DNA from: Escherichia phage ST2
Sequence record: OM982647
DNA: 64,000 nucleotides
Reading direction: 5' to 3' (one strand)
A model generated the notes under the pieces. The model was given only the letters and a program-made list of their open reading frames with translations. It searched no databases and was not told the origin of the DNA. Numbering within the stretch: the stretch's first letter is position 1; each line of letters begins with the position of its first letter. Shown piece after piece: positions 1 to 52,100 of the stretch. A program made the translations under genes and the position numbers.

Positions 1-710
1 AGAAATCCTTTAACATAATCAAAATCACGTTCAAACACATGGGCACTTACCATGGTATGAGTATAATCACCAACTTCTACACCACATTCGTTAGCGATAT
101 AATGAAGTAATTTTCCTTGGAGATAAAAATCCAGCTGCATAACAACAGCACAGTTCTGGGAACGCATATGACAGTGGGTATAAAGCTTACCATCGCGAAT
201 ATAATAAGTCACTGAGTCAGTACATGGATATTCAAGCGTTTCGTCCGAATCAAGCAAAGCCTGATCAGAACTTTCTAGAATTTGGAACACAACTCTTCGA
301 GAGTTAGGCTTCTCTTTAAGTTCTTTTAGAAGAGCTGGTAATTGGGCCGCAATGCGAGGACCATAGAAAGTGTTGAAGTTCGCCGGCAAAACATCTGATT
401 TTGGTTTAGAAATAAATTTAGCGACATTAGGATATGCCTTAAACGCTTCTTCTGCGTTGGTACCACCAGAAATCATAAACTTCCAGAAGTCTTCGGCATA
501 TTCATAAGAGATGCGGTTAATACGTGGATCGGTCATTTTGAATGATGATGGAGTGTCAACAACTACTGTCATAGACCCAATTTCATTACAACGTCCAATA
601 CGAGAATCAGTTACGAATTCCGGGTTTTCTAAAATTTCACGATTGACTGCTTTAAATGCGGCTTGAAAATCTGCGGCTTTGATATATTTCATTGTGTTAT
701 GTTTTCCCAT
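1..710 (-). CDS. 42: dCMP hydroxymethylase-like enzyme (thymidylate synthase fold), N-terminal part; gene continues past window start
   Basis: Minus-strand ORF open to position 1, ATG at 708-710; TS/dCMP-HMase-like motifs (NSRRVVFQI, YPCTDSV, MRSQN); position matches T4 gene 42. Confidence 0.75.
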   Translation of the reverse strand, partial: MGKHNTMKYIKAADFQAAFKAVNREILENPEFVTDSRIGRCNEIGSMTVVVDTPSSFKMTDPRINRISYEYAEDFWKFMISGGTNAEEAFKAYPNVAKFISKPKSDVLPANFNTFYGPRIAAQLPALLKELKEKPNSRRVVFQILESSDQALLDSDETLEYPCTDSVTYYIRDGKLYTHCHMRSQNCAVVMQLDFYLQGKLLHYIANECGVEVGDYTHTMVSAHVFERDFDYVKGF

Positions 711-751
711 GTTTACCTCAATACAGTTATTATATACTCAATTCATAAAGC

Positions 752-991
752 TTATTTGAATTTCTTAGCGATGTTGATATAACGTAGAGCTTCGGCATCG
801 ATACTTCTAAGAACACTATGAAGAAATGCATCAGCGTAGTATTCCAATTGAACAGGTTCTTTAATCACTTTAGCCGCTTTGGTTTCAAACAGGCCCATCA
901 GGGCCTTTTTAAGAATTTGTTCGTTAGTGTTCAGTTTTATAGTCAAAATCTCTTCGTTAAGTTTATAATTAAAACTTTTTCTAGAAATCAT
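752..991 (-). CDS. hypothetical protein (79 aa)
   Basis: Track ORF in same-strand array; start overlaps stop of upstream gene. Confidence 0.45.
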   Translation of the reverse strand: MISRKSFNYKLNEEILTIKLNTNEQILKKALMGLFETKAAKVIKEPVQLEYYADAFLHSVLRSIDAEALRYINIAKKFK

Positions 992-2157
992 TCCGGGTAC
1001 CTCAAAGCGTCATCAGAGTTAGTTATATCAATAATAGATATGGAGTTTTCTGCTAACCCGTTTTTAGATAATTGACGTTTATAATACCTTTCACAATATG
1101 TACACGTTGACCCACAGATTTCATTAGCACAATCAAAATCTGGATGTCTGAACCACCTTTTTTCTAAAAAGCCATCTAACAAAGAGGTTTCAATATTTAC
1201 TGTATGTGAAAACTCAGTCTCATTTTCAAGAGTGAAAATAGTCTCTAAAGGCTTCCACAGTTCTAACAAATTACCTTCAAACTTTTCAGAAGCGTATGCT
1301 TCAAGAACTTTCAAAATGTAGTCTGTGCTACCTGTACGTCCTGAAACTTTGAATTGAGTGATACCAATATCATTATAAAGTTTCAAATCTTGAGGACGAA
1401 CAAAACGAGTTCTCAACCAGTTAAATGGGTCTGTATCACGAGCTTTAATACAGTGCTGCATTGGATATCCATTTAAGGATTTAGCATCATCAGCTGTAAC
1501 ATCAGTACTATGGAAAATATAGCAAGAGTCACGATAGCTACAATGTGTTGTATACCCTTTACCAGCATTAGAACAGAACTCATTTACAAGAACTTCAAAT
1601 ATTATATTATTCTTATTGCAAAACTCTGCTGCACGCTTCAGGAAAGAAACTGAACGGTTCTTATGAATTCCGCAACAGACCTTTTTGATATTATATTGGT
1701 CATGCAAGTATTTGATTTGAGTTACAGCATCGACATGTAGAATTGTTGAAACTTCAATCTCAATGTCTTTATTGACTTCACGAACAATTTCCATAACAAC
1801 AGGGTTAGCGATAGTAATACGCCATACGCCTATTGACCAAAGATACTGAACATAATCCTGAATAGCTTTCTTCTTCCACTCAACTAGTTCTCTTTTTGAA
1901 CCAGGATTTATCGTGTTGAGTGTATAGTTAAAGCAAATACCTAATTCGTTACAACGTTTAACGTAATCTTCTAACATCTTTTTGTCAACGTCAGGAAGCC
2001 TAAAATCAGGTCTGGCTGCTACAAAAGCCATTTCTCTTGTAGAGCCGTATACTTCGTTTATCAAGCTATTAGGATAAGTGTTATTGAGCTCTACGATTTT
2101 ATCAAGAAGAGCTAAATCAAAATTCGTTCCAATTTTAAAAGTATTCATTTTTTGCAT
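988..2157 (-). CDS. peptidase-U32-family-like protein with Cys cluster
   Basis: 389 aa; TIM-barrel-like N-terminus; motifs EFCSNAGKGYTTHCSY and NGYPMQHCIKAR resemble U32 Cys signature; C-terminal CANEICGSTCTYC cluster. Confidence 0.5.
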   Translation of the reverse strand: MQKMNTFKIGTNFDLALLDKIVELNNTYPNSLINEVYGSTREMAFVAARPDFRLPDVDKKMLEDYVKRCNELGICFNYTLNTINPGSKRELVEWKKKAIQDYVQYLWSIGVWRITIANPVVMEIVREVNKDIEIEVSTILHVDAVTQIKYLHDQYNIKKVCCGIHKNRSVSFLKRAAEFCNKNNIIFEVLVNEFCSNAGKGYTTHCSYRDSCYIFHSTDVTADDAKSLNGYPMQHCIKARDTDPFNWLRTRFVRPQDLKLYNDIGITQFKVSGRTGSTDYILKVLEAYASEKFEGNLLELWKPLETIFTLENETEFSHTVNIETSLLDGFLEKRWFRHPDFDCANEICGSTCTYCERYYKRQLSKNGLAENSISIIDITNSDDALRYPE

Positions 2158-2203
2158 CTCACGTTAATTGATGCGATGGTTTTTGCAGGTCTTACTTAAA
2201 TTA

Positions 2204-2590
2204 TTATAGATTCGGTTTATATGATTTAAATGTTTCGAATTCGCCTTTATTCATAAGAGCTTTGAATTCGTCAGGACGCATAGCTTTGTCGTCGATAATC
2301 CAATCATATACTGGTTTATGTGTTAGCAAATTATGGTACTTCAAGCCAATGTTTGCCAAGTTCTGAATCAGACTTGGGAGAATGTCAATTGCTATACGAC
2401 CAGGACCTACTGACTTCATACCGCGAGCAGTGTAAAGCGTTATGGTATGCCCTGCATCATACAGGGCATTAATGGCAGACACCATTTCGACGTCTGGTTT
2501 GAAGTTCACGTAATCACGATTGTTATTCCACTCTGTTATACAATCATCGACATCAAAATAAAGATTAAGCATGTTTTCTACACGGTGCAT
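2204..2590 (-). CDS. HAD-superfamily phosphatase (putative sugar-phosphate phosphatase)
   Basis: HAD motif I FDVDDCIT, motif II LYTARG; ATG at 2588-2590 overlaps upstream stop (TAATG). Confidence 0.6.
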   Translation of the reverse strand: MHRVENMLNLYFDVDDCITEWNNNRDYVNFKPDVEMVSAINALYDAGHTITLYTARGMKSVGPGRIAIDILPSLIQNLANIGLKYHNLLTHKPVYDWIIDDKAMRPDEFKALMNKGEFETFKSYKPNL

Positions 2591-4275
2591 TAGATTCGTT
2601 CCCATTGATGAGTGATATCGCCACCGATTGGACGATAAGAAACGCCAGTTTCTTTATCAGTTAGTACCCATTTACCAGGATTTTTTGTAATCAGAGTAGC
2701 CGTTACAGGTTCTGCTACGTCATAACTAATAGAGCCGTCCTGAAGTACACGGCCCATGTTACGTAATTGCTTAGTCAGAAGTTCCATACCTTTATAATAT
2801 GCGGCTACCGCTTTAAGTGGATTATTCTTGAAATAACCACCTAATGCAATCCAGATAATTGCCACTGCCAAATGATGATACTCGTTAAACGAACTCATCT
2901 TTCCATATTTGTAAACTAATGGATTGATGTTAATAGTCACATTACAAGTTGTTTCATCAATAGTAAACTGTCCCCAGGTCGGATTAGCGTTGAATTCATC
3001 ATAACCAGAAACAGCATAAAGCACTTTAGCTTCATCATACAATTTTGGCCCGTAAATCTTGGTTTCGCCAAAATATCCACGAGGGTCGATAAACTTGACT
3101 TCACCGTTATCAGTAATCATAGTATTACTGAAGTTCGGGTCACCATGAATAACAGAGTACTGACCCTGAGAACGGTTATGATAACGAATAAGGTGTTCTA
3201 AAGCTTGTTTCAGCATTGGCTTCAGACGCCCAATCTTAGTGTAGTTCACGTGTGTGATTTTACCAAATGAATCAATCAATGGTTGAATGCTTTCACAACG
3301 ATCAATAACTTTCGTATAGAATTCTTTAGTGAAATCACGACGAACAGTTTCAGGACTTACAAAATAAGTGTCTGTGCTGAATTTCAGTGCATCTAAAATT
3401 GCATCAACAATTTGTGGACGAGCAAGACTTGATTTGGATTTAATATATTCAAATGCCGGCTTACCTTTAATGCGTTCCATTTCAAAGTTATTTTCATTAA
3501 CAGAAACTAACTGAGGGACTGAATCTGATTTCACTTTAAGATACCATGAAATCTCATCTTTTTGAAGAGCTCGACCCTGTTCGGTTAATGCGAATTTAGT
3601 TACAGTTTCTTCACCAATTTCAACTGCATTAAAACTACGATTAAGTTCACGAACTTCATGAGCTTTTTCAAGTTTAGGCATATCACCTAAATCAATTAGA
3701 TTCATAAGCTCTGATTTATTGAATGCGCTGCCGTAAAGGAATTCTACGAAATCACGTCCTTTGCAGTATTCATGAATTTCCTCATCGGTAGAACCCATAT
3801 AGAATTCCCAGTCTTTGAACTGATAAATTCCTACAACATTACCACCTGTTGAACCTACGTTAATGATATTTTCACCGTCGAAATTATATCGACATTCGTC
3901 ACCCTTAACATAGATTGCGTTAACATTCCAAGACCATGAACCAAAATCAGGAATAATATCACACCAGTTAACAATTACATTATGGCCGTCTAAATCTTTG
4001 TGTAATTTAGCAAGAGCATAAGCAGATCCATACGCTTCATCAACTGTGCGAATAGTCACATTGAACCCTTCTTGCTCACAATAAGCTCGAACAGTTTCAG
4101 CAAATTTTGAATGAACTACTACAATAATTTCATCTGCGCCAAGGTCAGAATAAATTGTATACAAATTGCTCAGAATAGTGTCTTGTTTATAGTTAACAAG
4201 CACCTTAGGAATATGATGCGTTATTGGATATAAACGAGTTGCCAATCCAGCACCAAGAATAACAGCTTTTTTCAT
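2590..4275 (-). CDS. bifunctional sugar-1-phosphate nucleotidyltransferase / APH-fold anomeric sugar kinase
   Basis: 561 aa; N-terminal MKKAVILGAGLATRL (NTP-transferase G-x-G-x-R); C-terminal HGDPNFSNTMI ... KFIDPRG (kinase catalytic loop and metal-binding motif). Confidence 0.7.
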   Translation of the reverse strand: MKKAVILGAGLATRLYPITHHIPKVLVNYKQDTILSNLYTIYSDLGADEIIVVVHSKFAETVRAYCEQEGFNVTIRTVDEAYGSAYALAKLHKDLDGHNVIVNWCDIIPDFGSWSWNVNAIYVKGDECRYNFDGENIINVGSTGGNVVGIYQFKDWEFYMGSTDEEIHEYCKGRDFVEFLYGSAFNKSELMNLIDLGDMPKLEKAHEVRELNRSFNAVEIGEETVTKFALTEQGRALQKDEISWYLKVKSDSVPQLVSVNENNFEMERIKGKPAFEYIKSKSSLARPQIVDAILDALKFSTDTYFVSPETVRRDFTKEFYTKVIDRCESIQPLIDSFGKITHVNYTKIGRLKPMLKQALEHLIRYHNRSQGQYSVIHGDPNFSNTMITDNGEVKFIDPRGYFGETKIYGPKLYDEAKVLYAVSGYDEFNANPTWGQFTIDETTCNVTININPLVYKYGKMSSFNEYHHLAVAIIWIALGGYFKNNPLKAVAAYYKGMELLTKQLRNMGRVLQDGSISYDVAEPVTATLITKNPGKWVLTDKETGVSYRPIGGDITHQWERI

Positions 4276-4316
4276 GTTGAAGTCCTCATTGGTAAGTAGG
4301 AGTATTGTACACTATT

Positions 4317-4460
4317 CTAGTTAAAGCATTCATACTTTGCTTGTAGTCCAATCATAATCCATCCAATTACAAGTGTTGGAATCATTACTGGAGCCGTTAA
4401 GCTCCAGTAGATAGTCATGACAAACATCAATAGTAAAAGTCCTATTGTTATTGATTTCAT
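4317..4460 (-). CDS. small hydrophobic membrane peptide (47 aa), not in ORF track
   Basis: ATG at 4458-4460 overlaps stop of SIS gene (ATGA); translation MKSITIGLLLLMFVMTIYWSLTAPVMIPTLVIGWIMIGLQAKYECFN; occupies imm position. Confidence 0.35.
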   Translation of the reverse strand: MKSITIGLLLLMFVMTIYWSLTAPVMIPTLVIGWIMIGLQAKYECFN

Positions 4461-5092
4461 TGTTCGCCTCGTAACATGGCACCTAGTGCACCGCCAGGGT
4501 GGAACTTAAGGAAGTCATTAGAGGTAAATCCACGTTCAGACGAAAGGTTGATAGCAAACGTATCGATAAGCGCTAACAACAATGTAGTGGACATAGTCGG
4601 AGCTAAAGAGTTCTCGTCAACTTCTACCGCGATACCGGTACAGAACGTATAATCAAAAAGAGCTTCGTATTCTTGTGGAATGTCAGGGTTACAATGTAAC
4701 AGAATCTGTTTAACCTGAGGACGAATCATACGAAGATGCTTAGCCACGCCTATCATTTCTTCAGTTTTACCAGAACGACTAATATGAATCAACACATCAT
4801 TAGGCGCAATGAATCCTGCATCACCGTGAGAATAATGCCCGGTGTTCAAGTACATACTCGGGATACCGAGTGAAGCAAATGTCTCAGAAGCTTTAGTTGC
4901 AATATTAGCATTCTTACCAACACCTGTAATAATTACTCGGCTTTCATAATTACTAAGTCCCGGGCGTCGAAGAGTTTCTAGAATAGCATTATAACGAGCA
5001 GGGTTTTGACTAATTACTTTGGCCATAGCGGCCAAAGAAGAAGCTTGTTTTATGATTGCGTCAATAGCGATAGTAATAGGAGTAGTTTTCAT
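4457..5092 (-). CDS. SIS-domain sugar-phosphate isomerase (arabinose-5-phosphate isomerase KdsD/GutQ-like, no CBS domains)
   Basis: 211 aa; SIS motifs VIITGVGKNANIA, HISRSGKT, C-terminal RGFTSNDFLKFHPGGALG typical of KdsD. Confidence 0.7.
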   Translation of the reverse strand: MKTTPITIAIDAIIKQASSLAAMAKVISQNPARYNAILETLRRPGLSNYESRVIITGVGKNANIATKASETFASLGIPSMYLNTGHYSHGDAGFIAPNDVLIHISRSGKTEEMIGVAKHLRMIRPQVKQILLHCNPDIPQEYEALFDYTFCTGIAVEVDENSLAPTMSTTLLLALIDTFAINLSSERGFTSNDFLKFHPGGALGAMLRGEQ

Positions 5093-36193: not shown

Positions 36194-36409
36194 TTATTGA
36201 TAAAATGGAGTTAAAGCCCAAGATTCTTTAGATACCATATTGGCGAAATGCCTCATCTCTTCGATTTGGCGACGACGCTGGTCAGCATAGTCTTCTTCGC
36301 CTTCTTCCTTACAATCTTCAAGGTCTTCTTCAAGATACTTTAAGTATTCACTACAAATTTTGTTGACCTTTTCTTGGAAGTCCAATAACCCGGTAATAGT
36401 AGAAGCCAT
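36194..36409 (-). CDS. hypothetical protein
   Basis: 71 aa acidic ORF. Confidence 0.5.
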   Translation of the reverse strand: MASTITGLLDFQEKVNKICSEYLKYLEEDLEDCKEEGEEDYADQRRRQIEEMRHFANMVSKESWALTPFYQ

Positions 36410-36654
36410 TAGTATTTTTCCTCAGGCTGAAATACCGCGCGACAAGCCCACATACTAGCTTCCTTTAGACGCTCTTTAGCGCAGTTAAGTTGGGACAAAG
36501 CCGTCAGAGCTTCAGGAGTATTTGCTGATAATGCTTCTTCTGCCAGGGCGTCCAGAATAAGTCCTAAACGAACTTCGGCATCTTTAATAGCGTTCACTTT
36601 ACCGATTTTATCATCGGTATGTGGCTTGTAGCCTTTGATGTCTTCAATCGACAT
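36409..36654 (-). CDS. hypothetical protein (81 aa)
   Basis: ATG 36652-36654 overlaps upstream stop. Confidence 0.45.
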   Translation of the reverse strand: MSIEDIKGYKPHTDDKIGKVNAIKDAEVRLGLILDALAEEALSANTPEALTALSQLNCAKERLKEASMWACRAVFQPEEKY

Positions 36655-37236: not shown

Positions 37237-37545
37237 TCAATTAGAAAATAAATTTATCCAAGATTTTTCTTTAATCAAAAATGGGTCGGAATTAAACGCC
37301 ATTAAACTTTGAGTGATTAATCCCTTAAATGGCCCATCAATAAATTCCATTTTGAAATGCGGAATACTAGTCATCATCCGTGCATTAGGAGCAGTACAAA
37401 GAACCTGCTGCCCGGCGAACGGACCTTTAGTCAAACGATATCGTTTAGGTTTAAAATGGTAAATCTCGTAATTTTCTACAAGAGCCCTTTTATTGCATAC
37501 TGGGCTGTTATAACAATACTCAAAAACTTCAATAGTGGTCATCAT
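37237..37545 (-). CDS. hypothetical protein
   Basis: 102 aa. Confidence 0.5.
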   Translation of the reverse strand: MMTTIEVFEYCYNSPVCNKRALVENYEIYHFKPKRYRLTKGPFAGQQVLCTAPNARMMTSIPHFKMEFIDGPFKGLITQSLMAFNSDPFLIKEKSWINLFSN

Positions 37546-38081
37546 TGCATTCCAATCACAAAAAATTGAGGACGAGCATTACCGCCGATGCAATATTTGC
37601 TTTTGCAGCAGTGCTGTACTGTTTTAATGTGGACATTGTAAATCTTATCCATATCAGGAGCTTTAATAGGTTCGTCAATTATATACAGAATACGAGAAAG
37701 CGTTAATCCACGGAATTTAGAACCTTCATTGCCAATAAAACTACGAACAGAATCAGTAAATAAACGGAATCGAATATCATCGCTAGAATAACGAGAAAAT
37801 TCTTTTTTAATGTCGCCAGCAGAAATTTTAGCATAAGCTGAAGTATTAGAAAGAACAATAACTGTTCCGCCATCATATAACCAATTAGCAGCAAAGTTAG
37901 TCACAGCAATTGATTTACCTGATTGTCTGCCACCGTCTAAACGAAGTGTACAGTACTGCTTGAGTACGTCTTCAAATGGTGGGACATAACCATTCTTACA
38001 AATTTCTTCTACTCTAGCATCAGAATGGTGTGTAAAAGCATTCATCAGGGATAGATAAGGACCGGTTAAAAATGTTCTCAT
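37542..38081 (-). CDS. P-loop NTPase
   Basis: 179 aa; Walker A GGRQSGKS, Walker B ILYIIDEP. Confidence 0.55.
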   Translation of the reverse strand: MRTFLTGPYLSLMNAFTHHSDARVEEICKNGYVPPFEDVLKQYCTLRLDGGRQSGKSIAVTNFAANWLYDGGTVIVLSNTSAYAKISAGDIKKEFSRYSSDDIRFRLFTDSVRSFIGNEGSKFRGLTLSRILYIIDEPIKAPDMDKIYNVHIKTVQHCCKSKYCIGGNARPQFFVIGMQ

Positions 38082-38255
38082 TTAGTTTCTCTTTTAGGTT
38101 GGGGCCATTCCGTGGCACATGTTAGGTCCTTCGACTCGCTATGTAAACCCATTACCGCACTTGGGCTCGACCTTATTACAGGTTGGAAAAGGTACATCAC
38201 TCAGAGGACTCGACGTTCATAAGGAGAGGTTGCGTTTCCCTTTATTAGGCAAGAA

Positions 38256-38585
38256 TTATACTCTAGGCTTTTGAGCTTGTTTGGTATTGGATTCCCATGC
38301 GGCTTTGGTAATTTTGTTAGCGGCATAACCAAAGGCATTAGATAGAACACCTTTAGAGTTGAATACATCCAATCCAATAAGTACACCGGCTGTGTTAAAT
38401 TTAGGAGCAAAGTACGCATTAGTTTTAGAAAGAGCTTTTTTCAATTCAGGGTCTTGAACCAAGCTATCAAAAACGCCTTTACTATTTACTTTATATGTTA
38501 CTTTGGGATTTTTACCTTCTTCGATAGCAGCTTTCTGTTCCGCAGATAATGTAACTTCAGTGATAAACTCTTGATATGTTTTCAT
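38256..38585 (-). CDS. internal (capsid-packaged) protein candidate with CTS leader
   Basis: N-terminus MKTYQEFITE (capsid targeting sequence ending in Glu). Confidence 0.65.
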   Translation of the reverse strand: MKTYQEFITEVTLSAEQKAAIEEGKNPKVTYKVNSKGVFDSLVQDPELKKALSKTNAYFAPKFNTAGVLIGLDVFNSKGVLSNAFGYAANKITKAAWESNTKQAQKPRV

Positions 38586-38610
38586 TTTGTTCCTATTGTT
38601 TTAATTTATG

Positions 38611-38925
38611 TTATTCTTTAGGGAAGTTTTTAGAGTATGCATCATAAAGTTTATTACCAATACGGCGGAAGACTTTAGCTGCAAAACGGTTTTCAGGGTT
38701 TTTAATCATGATTTGCATCATGTAAGTTCCTGCATCCGAAAGAGCTTCTTCGTAGTACCCATTAATTTCTTTAAGAGTCCTACGTTTACCACCAGGACCA
38801 TCAACAGTAATTTTCCATTTACCTGTAGAAGTGCGGCTCGGTGGCTCAACTTGTTCAATCCAAATATAACCACCTTCAACGCGTTGGTTGGCGGATTCTG
38901 CAATAAATTCTTTATACGTTTTCAT
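38611..38925 (-). CDS. internal protein candidate with CTS leader
   Basis: N-terminus MKTYKEFIAE. Confidence 0.65.
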   Translation of the reverse strand: MKTYKEFIAESANQRVEGGYIWIEQVEPPSRTSTGKWKITVDGPGGKRRTLKEINGYYEEALSDAGTYMMQIMIKNPENRFAAKVFRRIGNKLYDAYSKNFPKE

Positions 38926-38939
38926 TTTTTGTTTCCTTG

Positions 38940-38987
38940 TTTGTTTTGATAGAGTAATTATACCATATTAATACTTAAGCGTAAACA
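38940..38987 (-). promoter_or_regulatory. early promoter GTTTAC-N18-TATAAT
   Basis: Minus strand GTTTACGCTTAAGTATTAATATGGTATAAT. Confidence 0.5.
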
Positions 38988-38989
38988 AT

Positions 38990-39250
38990 TTAAGCTTTAC
39001 CGCCAGAAATAATTCCGAAGTTGTTAAAATCGTATCCAATATCGTCAACATCTACTTTAGGACTTACTACAACATAAGCAATTTCACTACGTTTTGCATA
39101 GGTGTTGATTTCTTTACCATCGCCACCTAAGAAAGAATACCCATTACGTTTTAATGAGCCAAAGTCTTCCGCATCACCAATGAAAGCTTTAACTTTAAAT
39201 TTAGGACCTTTGGCGTCTGCTTCAATGATAAATTCTTGATACATTTTCAT
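38990..39250 (-). CDS. internal protein candidate with CTS leader
   Basis: N-terminus MKMYQEFIIE. Confidence 0.6.
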   Translation of the reverse strand: MKMYQEFIIEADAKGPKFKVKAFIGDAEDFGSLKRNGYSFLGGDGKEINTYAKRSEIAYVVVSPKVDVDDIGYDFNNFGIISGGKA

Positions 39251-39256
39251 TTTTCC

Positions 39257-39670
39257 TTAGTAAATTGATTTACCATAGTATTTGTACCAAGTCGGACGTT
39301 GAGCAATTTTTTCATCTAAGCGTGCTTGACTTATCGCAATGGACGCTTCGGACGGGACATAATTATTACGAAATTCGGCAGGGATGTCAGAAATATCCTG
39401 GACAGTCGTGTCCTTGATTTTGAAACCACGTTTCAAGCATTCGGCGATTAGCTCGATTTGACGTAAACGTAAAAATTCGAGTTTGTCATAAAAGAACGTT
39501 ACGTGACCTGTGCCTAAGATAAATGTTGGAGAGATTTTAAAATCCTTTACACGTTTACCGTTTTGAACATGTTTACGGACTGCACCAAATACGCGTGGTA
39601 ATTCACGATACTCAGCCATAAGATGTTGGTCGGTCAGTTCAGAAACAAGTGTTAAATTGATACGGGTCAT
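39257..39670 (-). CDS. denV: pyrimidine dimer DNA glycosylase (endonuclease V) DenV
   Basis: T4 DenV-like from [12 protein letters not shown] (ATG 39668-39670). Confidence 0.9.
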
Positions 39671-39682
39671 AATTTCCTCCAA

Positions 39683-39727
39683 GTAGTTGATGAATGTATA
39701 GTATCAAAGTCCTTGGAGGAAGTAAAC
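39683..39727 (-). promoter_or_regulatory. early promoter GTTTAC-N18-TACTAT
   Basis: Minus strand GTTTACTTCCTCCAAGGACTTTGATACTAT. Confidence 0.45.
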
Positions 39728-39728
39728 A

Positions 39729-40010
39729 CTATTTTTCTGAAGCGCCTGAAATATATTTTTCAAGACGTTGTTTCATCAGCGAGCCGTTCTTAGCGATTTC
39801 TTCCGGTTTATCGCACATACGCAACAAGGCTTCAAGCTTAACGATATCACTGGTACGTTCAAATTTGCGAGTATCTATCTTACTGGCAAGTTCAGAAATA
39901 CGTGCTAATAGACTTTCGGCTTCAACCAAAGCTGCACCTAGCTTAGTTGCAAACGTGTCAGTAGCTTCATTAAGAATAGATTCTGATAAAAATTCACTAT
40001 ATGTTTTCAT
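39729..40010 (-). CDS. internal protein candidate with CTS leader
   Basis: ATG 40008-40010 overlaps lysozyme stop; N-terminus [10 protein letters not shown]. Confidence 0.6.
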
Positions 40011-40495
40011 ATATACGCTTTCCAAGTTCCTGTTTTAAATGTTGAGATTACGCGTTTCGCGCGATTAGGTGTCTGGCGATACCATTTAGATTTGGCTAGA
40101 TTTACTGCCGCTTCATCCCAACGTTTCTGTTGAAGCATACGAAGAGAATTAGTAAAACCAGCGACGCCTGCTACACCCATTTGGAAGACCATATTGACCA
40201 ATGCACATCGACGAACCGCGTCTAAAGAATCATACACCGGTTTAAGTTTAGCATTACCCAAGATTCCGCGAACGGCTTTATCAACGTCTTCATTAAATAG
40301 CTTTTCGGCCTCATCAAGGGTAATTGTACCGTTGCATTTACGTCCGACCATTCTGTCAAGTTCAGCTTTAGCTACGGCTAAAGAAGGGTTCTTTGTTACT
40401 AAATGGCCTATGCCAATCGTCCAAAAGCCTTCAGTGTCTTTGTATAAAGTCAGCCTAAGACCTTCGTCATTACGAAGCATTTCAAATATATTCAT
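40007..40495 (-). CDS. e: lysozyme (endolysin) e
   Basis: T4 lysozyme-like from [15 protein letters not shown] (ATG 40493-40495). Confidence 0.95.
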
Positions 40496-40529
40496 AATAC
40501 CTCCCACGTTTATAGGAGGTATTTATTAC

Positions 40530-40988
40530 TTATAGGAGGGTAGTGAGCACCTTATATAATGATTTGCCCATTACATATTCCCATTGAGAAGGTTTAATTA
40601 AAGCGAATGCATCAAATTCAGGAATCTGTCGTCCGTCTGGGAATGTATGATAGGAATTACAAACACTGTTTCTGAATTGCTCGTGCTCTACAGGGATGGT
40701 ATATTGGAACAGATGAATATTCTTACTGTCTGAGTAATGATGTTCACCTAGGTCTTTCAGGAAGGCAGGGTCATATTGTGTAAACCCAGTTTCTTCTTCG
40801 CATTCACGAATAGCGGCTTCAATAGGAGATTCGCCAGGTTCGACACGGCCTTTAGGAATATCCCACCGATGAGCTAATGCACCTTTAGGACGAGAACCAG
40901 TTACACGGCCCATGAATAACTCTTTATCTTTTGTCATGAAGATAATACCGGCTGATAGTTCTTTCACTTTATTTTTCTTACTCATCAT
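40530..40988 (-). CDS. nudE: Nudix hydrolase NudE
   Basis: 152 aa; Nudix box GRVEPGESPIEAAIRECEEETG. Confidence 0.85.
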   Translation of the reverse strand: MMSKKNKVKELSAGIIFMTKDKELFMGRVTGSRPKGALAHRWDIPKGRVEPGESPIEAAIRECEEETGFTQYDPAFLKDLGEHHYSDSKNIHLFQYTIPVEHEQFRNSVCNSYHTFPDGRQIPEFDAFALIKPSQWEYVMGKSLYKVLTTLL

Positions 40989-48170: not shown

Positions 48171-48734
48171 TTATTTACCTAGTTTAGTTATTATAGCTTC
48201 GGCAGCAGCTTTTAGCTTAGATGCAGTGTTAATACGATTTTTAATTTCAGTATACGCATCGCCAAGAACATCAAGGCTATCAGAATAAACACTTACACTA
48301 TTGCGTTCGCTATTTGAAATAGAACCTTTAGTTTTACGATCAAAATCAGTGTACACGTCTTGAAGATCACGGGCTGCCTTCTTTGCATCATCCAATGCAT
48401 CAAGAGCTTTATTCAAAGCATTGACATATTTTTTAGTGTCAAACATATTCTTAGAAATTTTAACAGGTGCACGTTCAGGAGTAGCTAAGGCGGATTTAGG
48501 AACCTGCGTGCCAGATGCCAGTTTCTTAGAAATTTTGAAAAACGCTTTATTGAAACTATTTTCTTGACTCATCGTAAAAGAACTAGTATCGATGTTATAC
48601 ATTTCAATAGCTTTAGCTTTCCACTTAAGAAAATCGCCACGGTCTTTTGGATCCAAGTGGAAGAATACTTTAGTAAGATCTGCTTCAGATGGTAATTTTG
48701 CTGCTTCGGTTAAAAATTCGGCATAGGTTTTCAT
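48171..48734 (-). CDS. internal protein candidate with CTS leader (187 aa)
   Basis: N-terminus MKTYAEFLTE. Confidence 0.65.
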   Translation of the reverse strand: MKTYAEFLTEAAKLPSEADLTKVFFHLDPKDRGDFLKWKAKAIEMYNIDTSSFTMSQENSFNKAFFKISKKLASGTQVPKSALATPERAPVKISKNMFDTKKYVNALNKALDALDDAKKAARDLQDVYTDFDRKTKGSISNSERNSVSVYSDSLDVLGDAYTEIKNRINTASKLKAAAEAIITKLGK

Positions 48735-48824: not shown

Positions 48825-48851
48825 AAAAAGCCCCAACCTTTCGGAAGGGGC
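48825..48851 (-). terminator. rho-independent terminator (copy 2 of 3)
   Basis: Same GCCCCTTCCGAAAGGTTGGGGC hairpin plus T-run. Confidence 0.7.
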
Positions 48852-48857
48852 ATTCTA

Positions 48858-49322
48858 TTATTTAATTTGTTTAGCAGACCAGATACGGTCTTTAATAAGT
48901 TTTTGGATATCTTCAACATACTCAAGGCTATGAGCGTGAGGATTATCTTTGAAGCTATGTGCTCGTGCCAGTTTCTGGCCTTCTGTTTTGATTACTAAAA
49001 GCTCTTTAAGAATTGCTTCATACTTAGAAATAATTCCTTTGGCGATATTTTTTTCTTGAGCGGCTTTAGGGTCCGCTTTTGGCACAGGTGCTTTACCTGT
49101 AGCTTTCTGGAACAATTCACCTGATGCAGCTAGGCTTTTAAAAACTCGGCTAACAGTATTAGCATTAGTAAAACCTTCGGCTTTAAAATCTCTAATAAAA
49201 CGGAAACGTTCTTCATCAGAGGCGTCTTTGTAAGAATATTTACCTGCTTGAATTGCTGCAATCGCAGCGGCTTTTACATCTGAACTAGATTGTTCAGTCA
49301 AAAATTCAGCGTATGATTTCAT
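48858..49322 (-). CDS. internal protein candidate with CTS leader (154 aa)
   Basis: N-terminus MKSYAEFLTE. Confidence 0.65.
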   Translation of the reverse strand: MKSYAEFLTEQSSSDVKAAAIAAIQAGKYSYKDASDEERFRFIRDFKAEGFTNANTVSRVFKSLAASGELFQKATGKAPVPKADPKAAQEKNIAKGIISKYEAILKELLVIKTEGQKLARAHSFKDNPHAHSLEYVEDIQKLIKDRIWSAKQIK

Positions 49323-49367
49323 GTTGCTTTTCCTAAGTTAATTAACTTATCTATTTATTATTATGCC

Positions 49368-49397
49368 AAAAAAAAGCCCCAACCTTTCGGAAGGGGC
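49368..49397 (-). terminator. rho-independent terminator (copy 3 of 3), ends tRNA/small-RNA transcript
   Basis: Hairpin plus T8 on minus strand. Confidence 0.7.
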
Positions 49398-49700
49398 TAT
49401 GCCTTGCGGCAACCTTGTCGGGGTTCCACCTGCTAAGGCAAGTGTTTGTACGAAACGCCGGGATTCGAACCCGGTTATTAAGTAGTTGACGCTACTCAAT
49501 ATTTTTAAAAGGCCATATCTCGACCATATCCGAACGTTCCGTCAAAAACGCTACTCGGCTTACGGCAAAGATATTTCCTCGAATCGATAATTCGGTGCGC
49601 CGTTTCTGCTGTGATGTAAGGGGATATTAACAAATCGTAAAGATTTATTAAGACCAGTCCTTACGCAGGGAACATCAGTCCGACGACTTACCGGTAGCGA
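49398..49700 (-). ncRNA. candidate small stable RNA(s) downstream of tRNA cluster (T4 rnaC/rnaD-like position)
   Basis: About 300 nt non-coding; tRNA-like T-arm CCGGGTTCGAATCCCGG on minus strand near 49458-49474; ends at terminator. Confidence 0.35.
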
Positions 49701-49709
49701 CCCGGCTTC

Positions 49710-50054
49710 TTATTTTGACATATCATCAATTTGCTCTCGACGCCGACGCCATAGATTAATCACTTCATTAACACATTCGGCGTTTGGTATATGACGGCAA
49801 TAATATAATGATTCGCGTTTCTGGAACCGATGTTGCAATGGGATTTCGTTTAAAAGGTCTTTACGGTCAAAGTATTCAAAACTAGTTAACCCAGAACGAT
49901 TTTTAATGAACTTCCAATGTCCAAATTCATTTTGAACATAGATGTAATCGGCATGCTGATACAACGAATTAATCAATCGGTCTGAAATAACTGTATCATG
50001 TTCGTTAAAATAAAACGTTAAATCATGAACTACTAAGTAAACATTACCTTTCAT
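49710..50054 (-). CDS. hypothetical protein
   Basis: 114 aa between tRNA cluster and small-RNA region. Confidence 0.5.
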   Translation of the reverse strand: MKGNVYLVVHDLTFYFNEHDTVISDRLINSLYQHADYIYVQNEFGHWKFIKNRSGLTSFEYFDRKDLLNEIPLQHRFQKRESLYYCRHIPNAECVNEVINLWRRRREQIDDMSK

Positions 50055-51812: not shown

Positions 51813-52100
51813 TTACAGAAGAGTTTTTGCAATAATTTTAAGCTGAGCTACAGAAATATGCTTAGCTTTAAACAGTGCGGTCTCTTCAGCCGGAGAGATA
51901 ACAATAGTAGCGCCGTCTTTCTTAGCAGACCATCCGTCCCCTAAGTAAACAGTACCTTTTACTTCTTCACCGTCAACCAGACTAATCATTGGTTTACCCT
52001 CACGTCCTTTATTTGTTTTAATAACTTCAGAAGTAAGGGATGCTTCGGTCAGAGTAGAAATGTTAGCAACAGGTGATATAAATTCTTTATAGGTTTTCAT
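51813..52100 (-). CDS. internal protein candidate at the IPI locus with CTS-like leader
   Basis: N-terminus MKTYKEFISP...; adjacent to 57B as T4 ipI. Confidence 0.6.
   Translation of the reverse strand: MKTYKEFISPVANISTLTEASLTSEVIKTNKGREGKPMISLVDGEEVKGTVYLGDGWSAKKDGATIVISPAEETALFKAKHISVAQLKIIAKTLL

Follow-up and report, generated by a model that had tools for sequence, protein, structure and literature searches.

Four open reading frames (ORFs) around denV in Escherichia phage ST2 (OM982647) are best explained as internal head proteins of the T4 type, and this is probably what they are. They lie on the minus strand, within positions 38256 to 40010 of the window (the whole stretch of 64,000 nucleotides that we analyzed), and each opens with the leader MK(T/M)Y(Q/K/S)EF(I/L)xE. 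The window comes from a Mosigvirus, with an identity of 97.6% to RB69 and about 98% to several RB69-like coliphages. Clusters of this kind are already known; one of the four proteins (B) was named in 1994, and two others (C and D) are annotated as "internal head protein." The only mildly new point is the fourth (A), which is unannotated and occurs only in the genera with arabinosyl modification of their DNA.

The genes are transcribed from the minus strand in the order nudE (40530-40988), lysozyme gene e (40007-40495), D, denV, C, B, A and, after a gap of 174 nt, vs.8 (37542-38081). D (39729-40010, 93 aa, equivalent to RB69ORF127c) lies immediately downstream of e, whose stop codon overlaps its ATG (ATGA), and contains two L-x-E sites, the second within SILNE. 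The gene denV (39257-39670), coding for endonuclease V (pyrimidine-dimer glycosylase), was identified by PF03013 (E value, 3e-14), phrog_1183 (E value, 1.5e-62) and the RB69 annotation; it is a landmark between D and C and falls outside the internal-protein set. Beyond it are C (38990-39250, 86 aa, leader MKMYQEFIIE, RB69ORF125c), B (38611-38925, 104 aa, leader MKTYKEFIAE, RB69ORF124c) and A (38256-38585, 109 aa, leader MKTYQEFITE, RB69ORF123c), with predicted mature forms of 76, 94 and 99 aa and pI values of 6.4, 9.6 and 9.7, respectively. Like the internal proteins of T4, A and B are basic in their mature form, whereas C and D are near neutral (pI of about 6.3 to 6.4). A Shine-Dalgarno-like sequence (AGGAA or GGAAA) is found 6 to 9 nt 5' of the ATG in all four. 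The first-pass annotation, which had described four leader-bearing ORFs around denV, was right about both their positions and their leaders. The gap that separates A from vs.8 (38082-38255) probably holds only the promoter of vs.8; an RNA element at this location was considered and rejected, as 194 of 200 shuffles of the sequence folded more stably and Rfam held no match to it.

The pattern MK.Y.EF[IL] was found seven times in the 127,996 six-frame positions of the window, each time at the N terminus of a coding-strand ORF (7 among 165 with a length of at least 60 aa), and not once in 20 shuffles of the window. A repeat search independently recovered the DNA coding for the leader as a 34-nt direct repeat present in four copies. 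A chance origin of the leader at ORF starts is excluded. These counts also extend the earlier list of leader-bearing ORFs, in which the four around denV were correct but three more in the window, starting at 48734, 49322 and 52100, had been missed. Two of them are located on the minus strand downstream of the tRNA cluster, one (48171-48734), which a frameshift divides in two in the RB69 reference, with 187 aa and the leader MKTYAEFLTE, and the other (48858-49322) with 154 aa, the leader MKSYAEFLTE and a match to phrog_2280 (unknown function). The third (51813-52100, minus strand, 95 aa) adjoins 57B and is the orthologue of ipI, with a leader of 19 aa (MKTYKEFISPVANISTLTE) and a body 90% identical to that of T4 IPI; its match to PF11634 (IPI_T4; E value, 3e-49) covers residues 20 to 95, which fits a cleavage after Glu19. 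Within A-D, Tyr4, Phe7, Ile or Leu8 and Glu10 are present in all four, position 10 being Glu and not Asp throughout, and residues 8 to 10 (ITE in A, IAE in B, IIE in C and LSE in D) follow the motif (L/I)-x-E of the prohead protease gp21. D has a second such motif, LNE, at residues 13 to 15, which aligns with the ITE of a Tequatrovirus homologue. These are the positions that matter in T4 IPIII, in which the first ten residues are enough for the packaging of foreign proteins and mutagenesis showed that targeting depends on positions 4 (Tyr/Phe) and 7 (Phe), and the cut by gp21 on positions 8 and 10 (reviewed in PMC9026906).

The transcription signals of the cluster are more equivocal. Upstream of B there is a candidate site similar to T4 early promoters (38957-38985, minus strand; TTTACG, 17 nt, TATAAT, preceded by TG), recognized by 10 of 12 matches to the consensus, and another candidate, read by eye, is found upstream of denV (39698-39727, minus strand; GTTTAC, 18 nt, TACTAT). 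An exact search for the late promoter TATAAATA gave no hit near the cluster. There are near-consensus late motifs, TATAAGTA and AATAAATA (one mismatch), upstream of e at about 40500-40540, together with a hairpin over the ribosome-binding site of e, and the corresponding place in T4 holds two exact copies of TATAAATA. D and the genes after it may be transcribed late from the motifs upstream of e. The early-type promoters, and the lack of an exact late one nearby, are what would be expected if the leader were a relic or a translation-start signal and A-D, instead of being packaged, acted in the cytoplasm of the cell that makes them. The RB69 reference, which has lesions in ORF124c and ORF148c/149c as well, could be read in the same way, since the leader is scrambled in ORF127c and Glu10 is replaced by Ala in ORF123c, although the two bodies are intact. 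We find this explanation extremely unlikely. Both lesions are confined to that single record among the variants compared, while all 13 natural variants of A keep MK[TM]YQEFITE and all 8 natural variants of D keep the leader. Between members of the A family, the leader is identical at 9 of 10 residues and the bodies only at 34%; in the B family, with about 50% identity across genera, the leader is kept in four genera. Furthermore, the codons for Thr3, Tyr4, Glu6 and Ile/Leu8 differ synonymously among the seven copies of the window, so selection acts on the leader peptide, and the sufficiency of ten residues for packaging in T4 speaks against a mere relic.

Beyond the leader, the four proteins show no relationship in sequence. 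Body-only BLASTP gave E values of >0.2 for all pairs among A-D, and comparison of their bodies with T4 IPI, IPII and IPIII gave E values of >0.3, i.e., no detectable similarity. Body-only hhalign, among A-D and against the same three T4 proteins, returned probabilities of 2.7% or less, so the earlier claim that the bodies are unrelated is borne out by both methods. A common match to phrog_3966 had made A and B candidates for paralogues. We discarded this relationship, as the hhalign probability dropped from 92% to 0.13% once the leader was removed, which indicates that phrog_3966 is a composite joined by the leader. None of A-D matched PF11634 in the Pfam search, and searches against Pfam, NCBIfam and the sequences of the Protein Data Bank produced only sub-threshold noise (NUMOD1, CsgH and myomesin). 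For the mature forms of B and C, AlphaFold2 with few homologues as input gave models with mean pLDDT values of 48 and 47, too poor to be of use.

By synteny, the interval e-denV-vs.8, in which all four genes sit, is the ipII/ipIII locus of T4. We scanned it in six genera and found two to four leader-bearing ORFs, on one or both sides of denV, and some phages with no denV in the interval. T-even phages have two variable loci for internal proteins, of which over 30 variants are on record (Arbiol et al. 2010, PMC2839356), and the two loci, with their flanking promoter/stem-loop elements, are attributed in that article to Repoila et al. 1994. Here, we took the variable loci to be e-denV-vs.8 and 57B-tRNA. 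B shares 92 of 97 residues (95%) with Ip10 of phage Pol (CAA84455), falls into the same 90% cluster and is effectively the same protein. It was found in 189 phage records belonging to Mosigvirus, Tequatrovirus, Gaprivervirus and Karamvirus, with a conserved leader. The copy in Tequatrovirus SH7 is 97% identical to that of ST2, while the surrounding genes reach only 84% (e), 63% (nudE) and 89% (vs.8), which indicates cassette exchange. C matches phrog_2667 ("internal head protein"; E value, 4e-21) and has 217 phage records, among them Tequatrovirus G4498 at 96% identity; natural variants with in-frame deletions occur, P0020 among them. D matches phrog_3499 ("internal head protein"; E value, 1e-46), has 496 phage records and is 100% identical in Tequatrovirus BGP. 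In Tequatrovirus KarlGJung, a homologue of D (48%) with a 15-aa leader ending in ITE occupies the ipI locus; cassettes are thus exchanged between the two variable loci, too. C and D carry the annotation "internal head protein" in the RefSeq entry of RB69 and in many other records, whereas A is "hypothetical" in every annotated record among the matches listed. Word-indexed searches for homologues yielded few clusters; an exhaustive one found A confined to Mosigvirus (at least 95% identity) and Dhakavirus (about 33 to 40%), with the leader kept in both; three further weak matches, to long proteins and in several stretches, were judged spurious. The genes A-D represent cassettes of the variable locus e-denV-vs.8, each exchangeable independently of the others.

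On the strength of the leader, we consider it highly likely that A-D are packaged, cleaved and injected. The 10-residue N-terminal capsid-targeting sequence would bind the scaffolding core, and the proteins would thus be built into the prohead. There, gp21 would cut after L/I-x-E, i.e., after Glu10 in A-D. A cut after Glu15 is also possible in D, as suggested by the 15-residue leader of its Tequatrovirus homologue. The mature proteins, of 8 to 11 kDa, would remain in the head with the DNA and be injected at the next infection. The genes for gp21 and the scaffold lie outside the 64-kb window and were compared in the close relative RB69, in which gp21 is 88% identical to that of T4, gp22, gp67 and gp68 are also encoded, and gp23 retains the cleavage site FLTE|AEIGG. 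No virion proteomics for any Mosigvirus came up in a literature search. The weakest link in the packaging of A-D is their supply at the time of head assembly, which we infer.

Injected proteins would arrive before any phage gene is expressed, so their likeliest job would be the disarming of first-line host defenses. The targets, by analogy with T4 Ip1, Ip2 and Ip3, would be type IV enzymes of the GmrSD family, a separate one for each protein. In T4, each of the three inhibits a different GmrSD enzyme (PMC12373910), and IPIII, which is active even when its leader is missing, is required for the infection of strain ECOR17 (PMC9391042). GmrSD enzymes restrict RB69 as well (PMC6024577), and arabinosylated DNA is a substrate of BrxU cleavage (PMC13390438). 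Taken together, these precedents make anti-restriction the leading hypothesis. The analogy inclines us slightly towards an anti-defense role for A-D; type IV restriction as their specific target seems possible but somewhat doubtful. When Ip4 to Ip10, including the family of B, were assayed against a panel of GmrSD variants, no reproducible inhibition was obtained (Silas et al. 2025, PMC12373910). The first-pass annotation had proposed that these cargoes are likely anti-defense effectors matched to the DNA modification of the phage; its first half is in line with the literature on GmrSD inhibitors, but the matching fails for B, C and D, as described below.

The same negative results, and the fact that the bodies of A-D are unrelated to known GmrSD inhibitors, could also mean that these proteins are injected effectors with targets other than type IV enzymes, either other immediate defenses or host functions to be taken over. 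The neighborhood provides an example of the former, since vs.4, in the same genome stretch, is a member of the Acb2/Tad1 family, a known anti-defense (anti-CBASS) gene, which counts in favor of the leading anti-defense reading, too. For the latter there is the ADP-ribosyltransferase Alt of T4, a packaged head protein processed by gp21 at both termini (PMC9026906). However, with mature forms of only 76 to 99 aa and no enzyme domain in Pfam or NCBIfam, A-D are likelier to be binders, and all the characterized precedents in this class are GmrSD inhibitors. We regard targets outside type IV restriction as rather unlikely. A third possibility is that A-D are packaged and play a structural or physical role, neutralizing the charge of the DNA, organizing the packed genome or helping the DNA to exit. 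Mature A and B are strongly basic, like T4 IPII and IPIII, about 1000 molecules of internal proteins are embedded in the packed DNA of T4 (PMC3012670), and proteins such as Ip4 to Ip10, with no GmrSD phenotype, would be accommodated. It seems quite unlikely all the same, as C and D are not basic, specific defense targets are now known for all three T4 internal proteins, and a generic function needs neither unrelated bodies nor rapid cassette turnover nor exchange across genera.

The modification of the ST2 DNA can be predicted from a 5-hydroxy-dCMP synthase and a cluster of arabinose-precursor genes found at 3-5041 of the window. Arabinosyl-5-hydroxycytosine DNA has been shown for RB69 and phage NP (PMC13326640, PMC13390438), and the genes of ST2 lead us to expect the same modification in its DNA. 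The idea that the cargoes are matched to this modification does not hold for B, C and D, which are found nearly unchanged in Tequatrovirus (97%, 96% and 100%, respectively), and one of these phages, BGP, in which both C and D are present, has glucosylated, 5-hmdC-based DNA (PMC13390438). A match may hold for A alone, whose two genera, Mosigvirus and Dhakavirus, have both been reported or predicted to carry arabinosyl modification. It should be noted that two related genera are too few for separating function from ancestry. A might be an injected inhibitor tuned to defenses that recognize arabinosyl-5-hydroxycytosine DNA, with the GmrSD variant of UTI89 as a candidate target, a speculative proposal that we consider distinctly improbable. 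Should it be correct, A would become the first example of an internal protein linked to a DNA modification other than glucose. As a separate observation, the UTI89 variant restricts RB69 and does not restrict T4.

Injected internal proteins are the first move of the phage against host immunity. Restriction enzymes have been defined as targets for three internal proteins of T4, and dozens of others, including Ip10, are without one. A-D are four orphan candidates, from a phage with arabinosyl-cytosine DNA, for screening against the defenses of wild E. coli. The cluster is valuable as a list of candidates for work along lines already established, to which it adds no new principle.

The closest known systems are IPII and IPIII of T4 (Ip2 and Ip3), coded between e and denV. 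They share with A-D the locus, the type of leader (MKTYQEFIAE in T4) and the gp21 motif L/I-x-E. IPII is similar in size to the proteins described here, whereas IPIII is about twice as long. Both T4 proteins are basic, as are A and B and in contrast to the near-neutral C and D, and their bodies have no detectable similarity to A-D. The position with respect to denV also differs, since three of the four genes of ST2 (C, B and A) lie beyond it. IPII and IPIII are injected inhibitors, each of one GmrSD type IV enzyme. From Ip10 of the T-even phage Pol (Repoila et al. 1994, EMBO J), B differs in nothing of substance. The other reference is IPI/IPI* of T4 (PF11634), which inhibits the GmrSD of E. 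coli CT596 and whose orthologue in the window is the gene at 51813-52100. IPI has a leader of 19 residues, cut after (I/L)TE, as opposed to the short 10-residue leaders and unrelated bodies of A-D. A long leader of the IPI type is, however, present in the homologue of D that Tequatrovirus carries in its ipI locus. Finally, the variable loci and cassette shuffling of T4-type phages (Repoila 1994; Comeau 2007; Arbiol 2010, PMC2839356) have the same architecture as the window, with early promoters and stem-loops flanking the loci and exchange across genera included, and in the Mosigvirus arrangement found here one cassette precedes denV and three follow it.

Three more minus-strand ORFs carrying a capsid-targeting leader were found in the window. 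Two of them, at 48171-48734 (187 aa, leader MKTYAEFLTE) and 48858-49322 (154 aa, leader MKSYAEFLTE), share the family phrog_2280 and are annotated as "hypothetical" in all records; they have "EFLTE|A/Q", in agreement with FLTE|A, the site at which gp23 is cleaved. The third, at 51813-52100, is an ipI orthologue with a 19-residue capsid-targeting leader. The 154-aa ORF has, on either side, one copy of a perfect 27-nt repeat (48825-48851 and 49371-49397), a terminator hairpin that reads GCCCCTTCCGAAAGGTTGGGGCTTTTT on the coding strand, and this arrangement suggests that recombination between the two hairpins either brought the cassette in or is able to remove it.

Some Mosigvirus isolates (vB_EcoM-172859UKE1 and PhAPEC2, matches H104 and H105, and protein P0020) have an in-frame deletion within C, the 86-aa internal-protein candidate at 38990-39250 (minus), that retains the leader and the last ~25 residues. 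These natural deletions indicate that C is dispensable. denV itself behaves as a dispensable cassette, since some Tequatrovirus phages (SH7, L007, and also L013 and L018) do not have it between e and vs.8, the gene order there being e, Ip10, a 157-aa leader-bearing DUF7412 protein and vs.8.

In the RB69 reference (NC_004928; L001 2755-4509 and L003 1929-2491), four internal-protein genes are damaged. The cleavage residue Glu10 of ORF123c is replaced by Ala, ORF124c has a C-terminal frameshift, a compensated -1/+1 frameshift in ORF127c scrambles leader residues 5-12, and the copy of the 187-aa ORF is split by a frameshift into ORF148c/149c. The comparison with isolates covered two of these lesions, the leader changes of ORF123c and ORF127c, and they were found in none of the natural isolates examined, so they arose either by decay in the laboratory or as errors of early sequencing.

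A vs.4 homologue (36409-36654, minus) with a Pfam Acb2/Tad1 hairpin domain (E 5e-18), a known family of anti-CBASS sponges, is located 1.6 kb downstream of the A-D internal-protein cluster, so counter-defence genes are abundant in this part of the genome. Homologues of the 5-hydroxy-dCMP synthase and arabinose-precursor gene cluster (3-5041, minus), 98-99.7% identical to RB69, would place ST2 among the phages with arabinosyl-5-hydroxycytosine DNA.

Finally, the tRNA cluster and ORF 49710-50054 are followed immediately, on their downstream side, by ~390 nt without any ORF (49323-49709, minus). No match to this stretch was found in Rfam or by ARAGORN. It includes a tRNA-like T-arm, GGTTCGAATCC, and sits where T4 has its stable RNAs, rnaC and rnaD.
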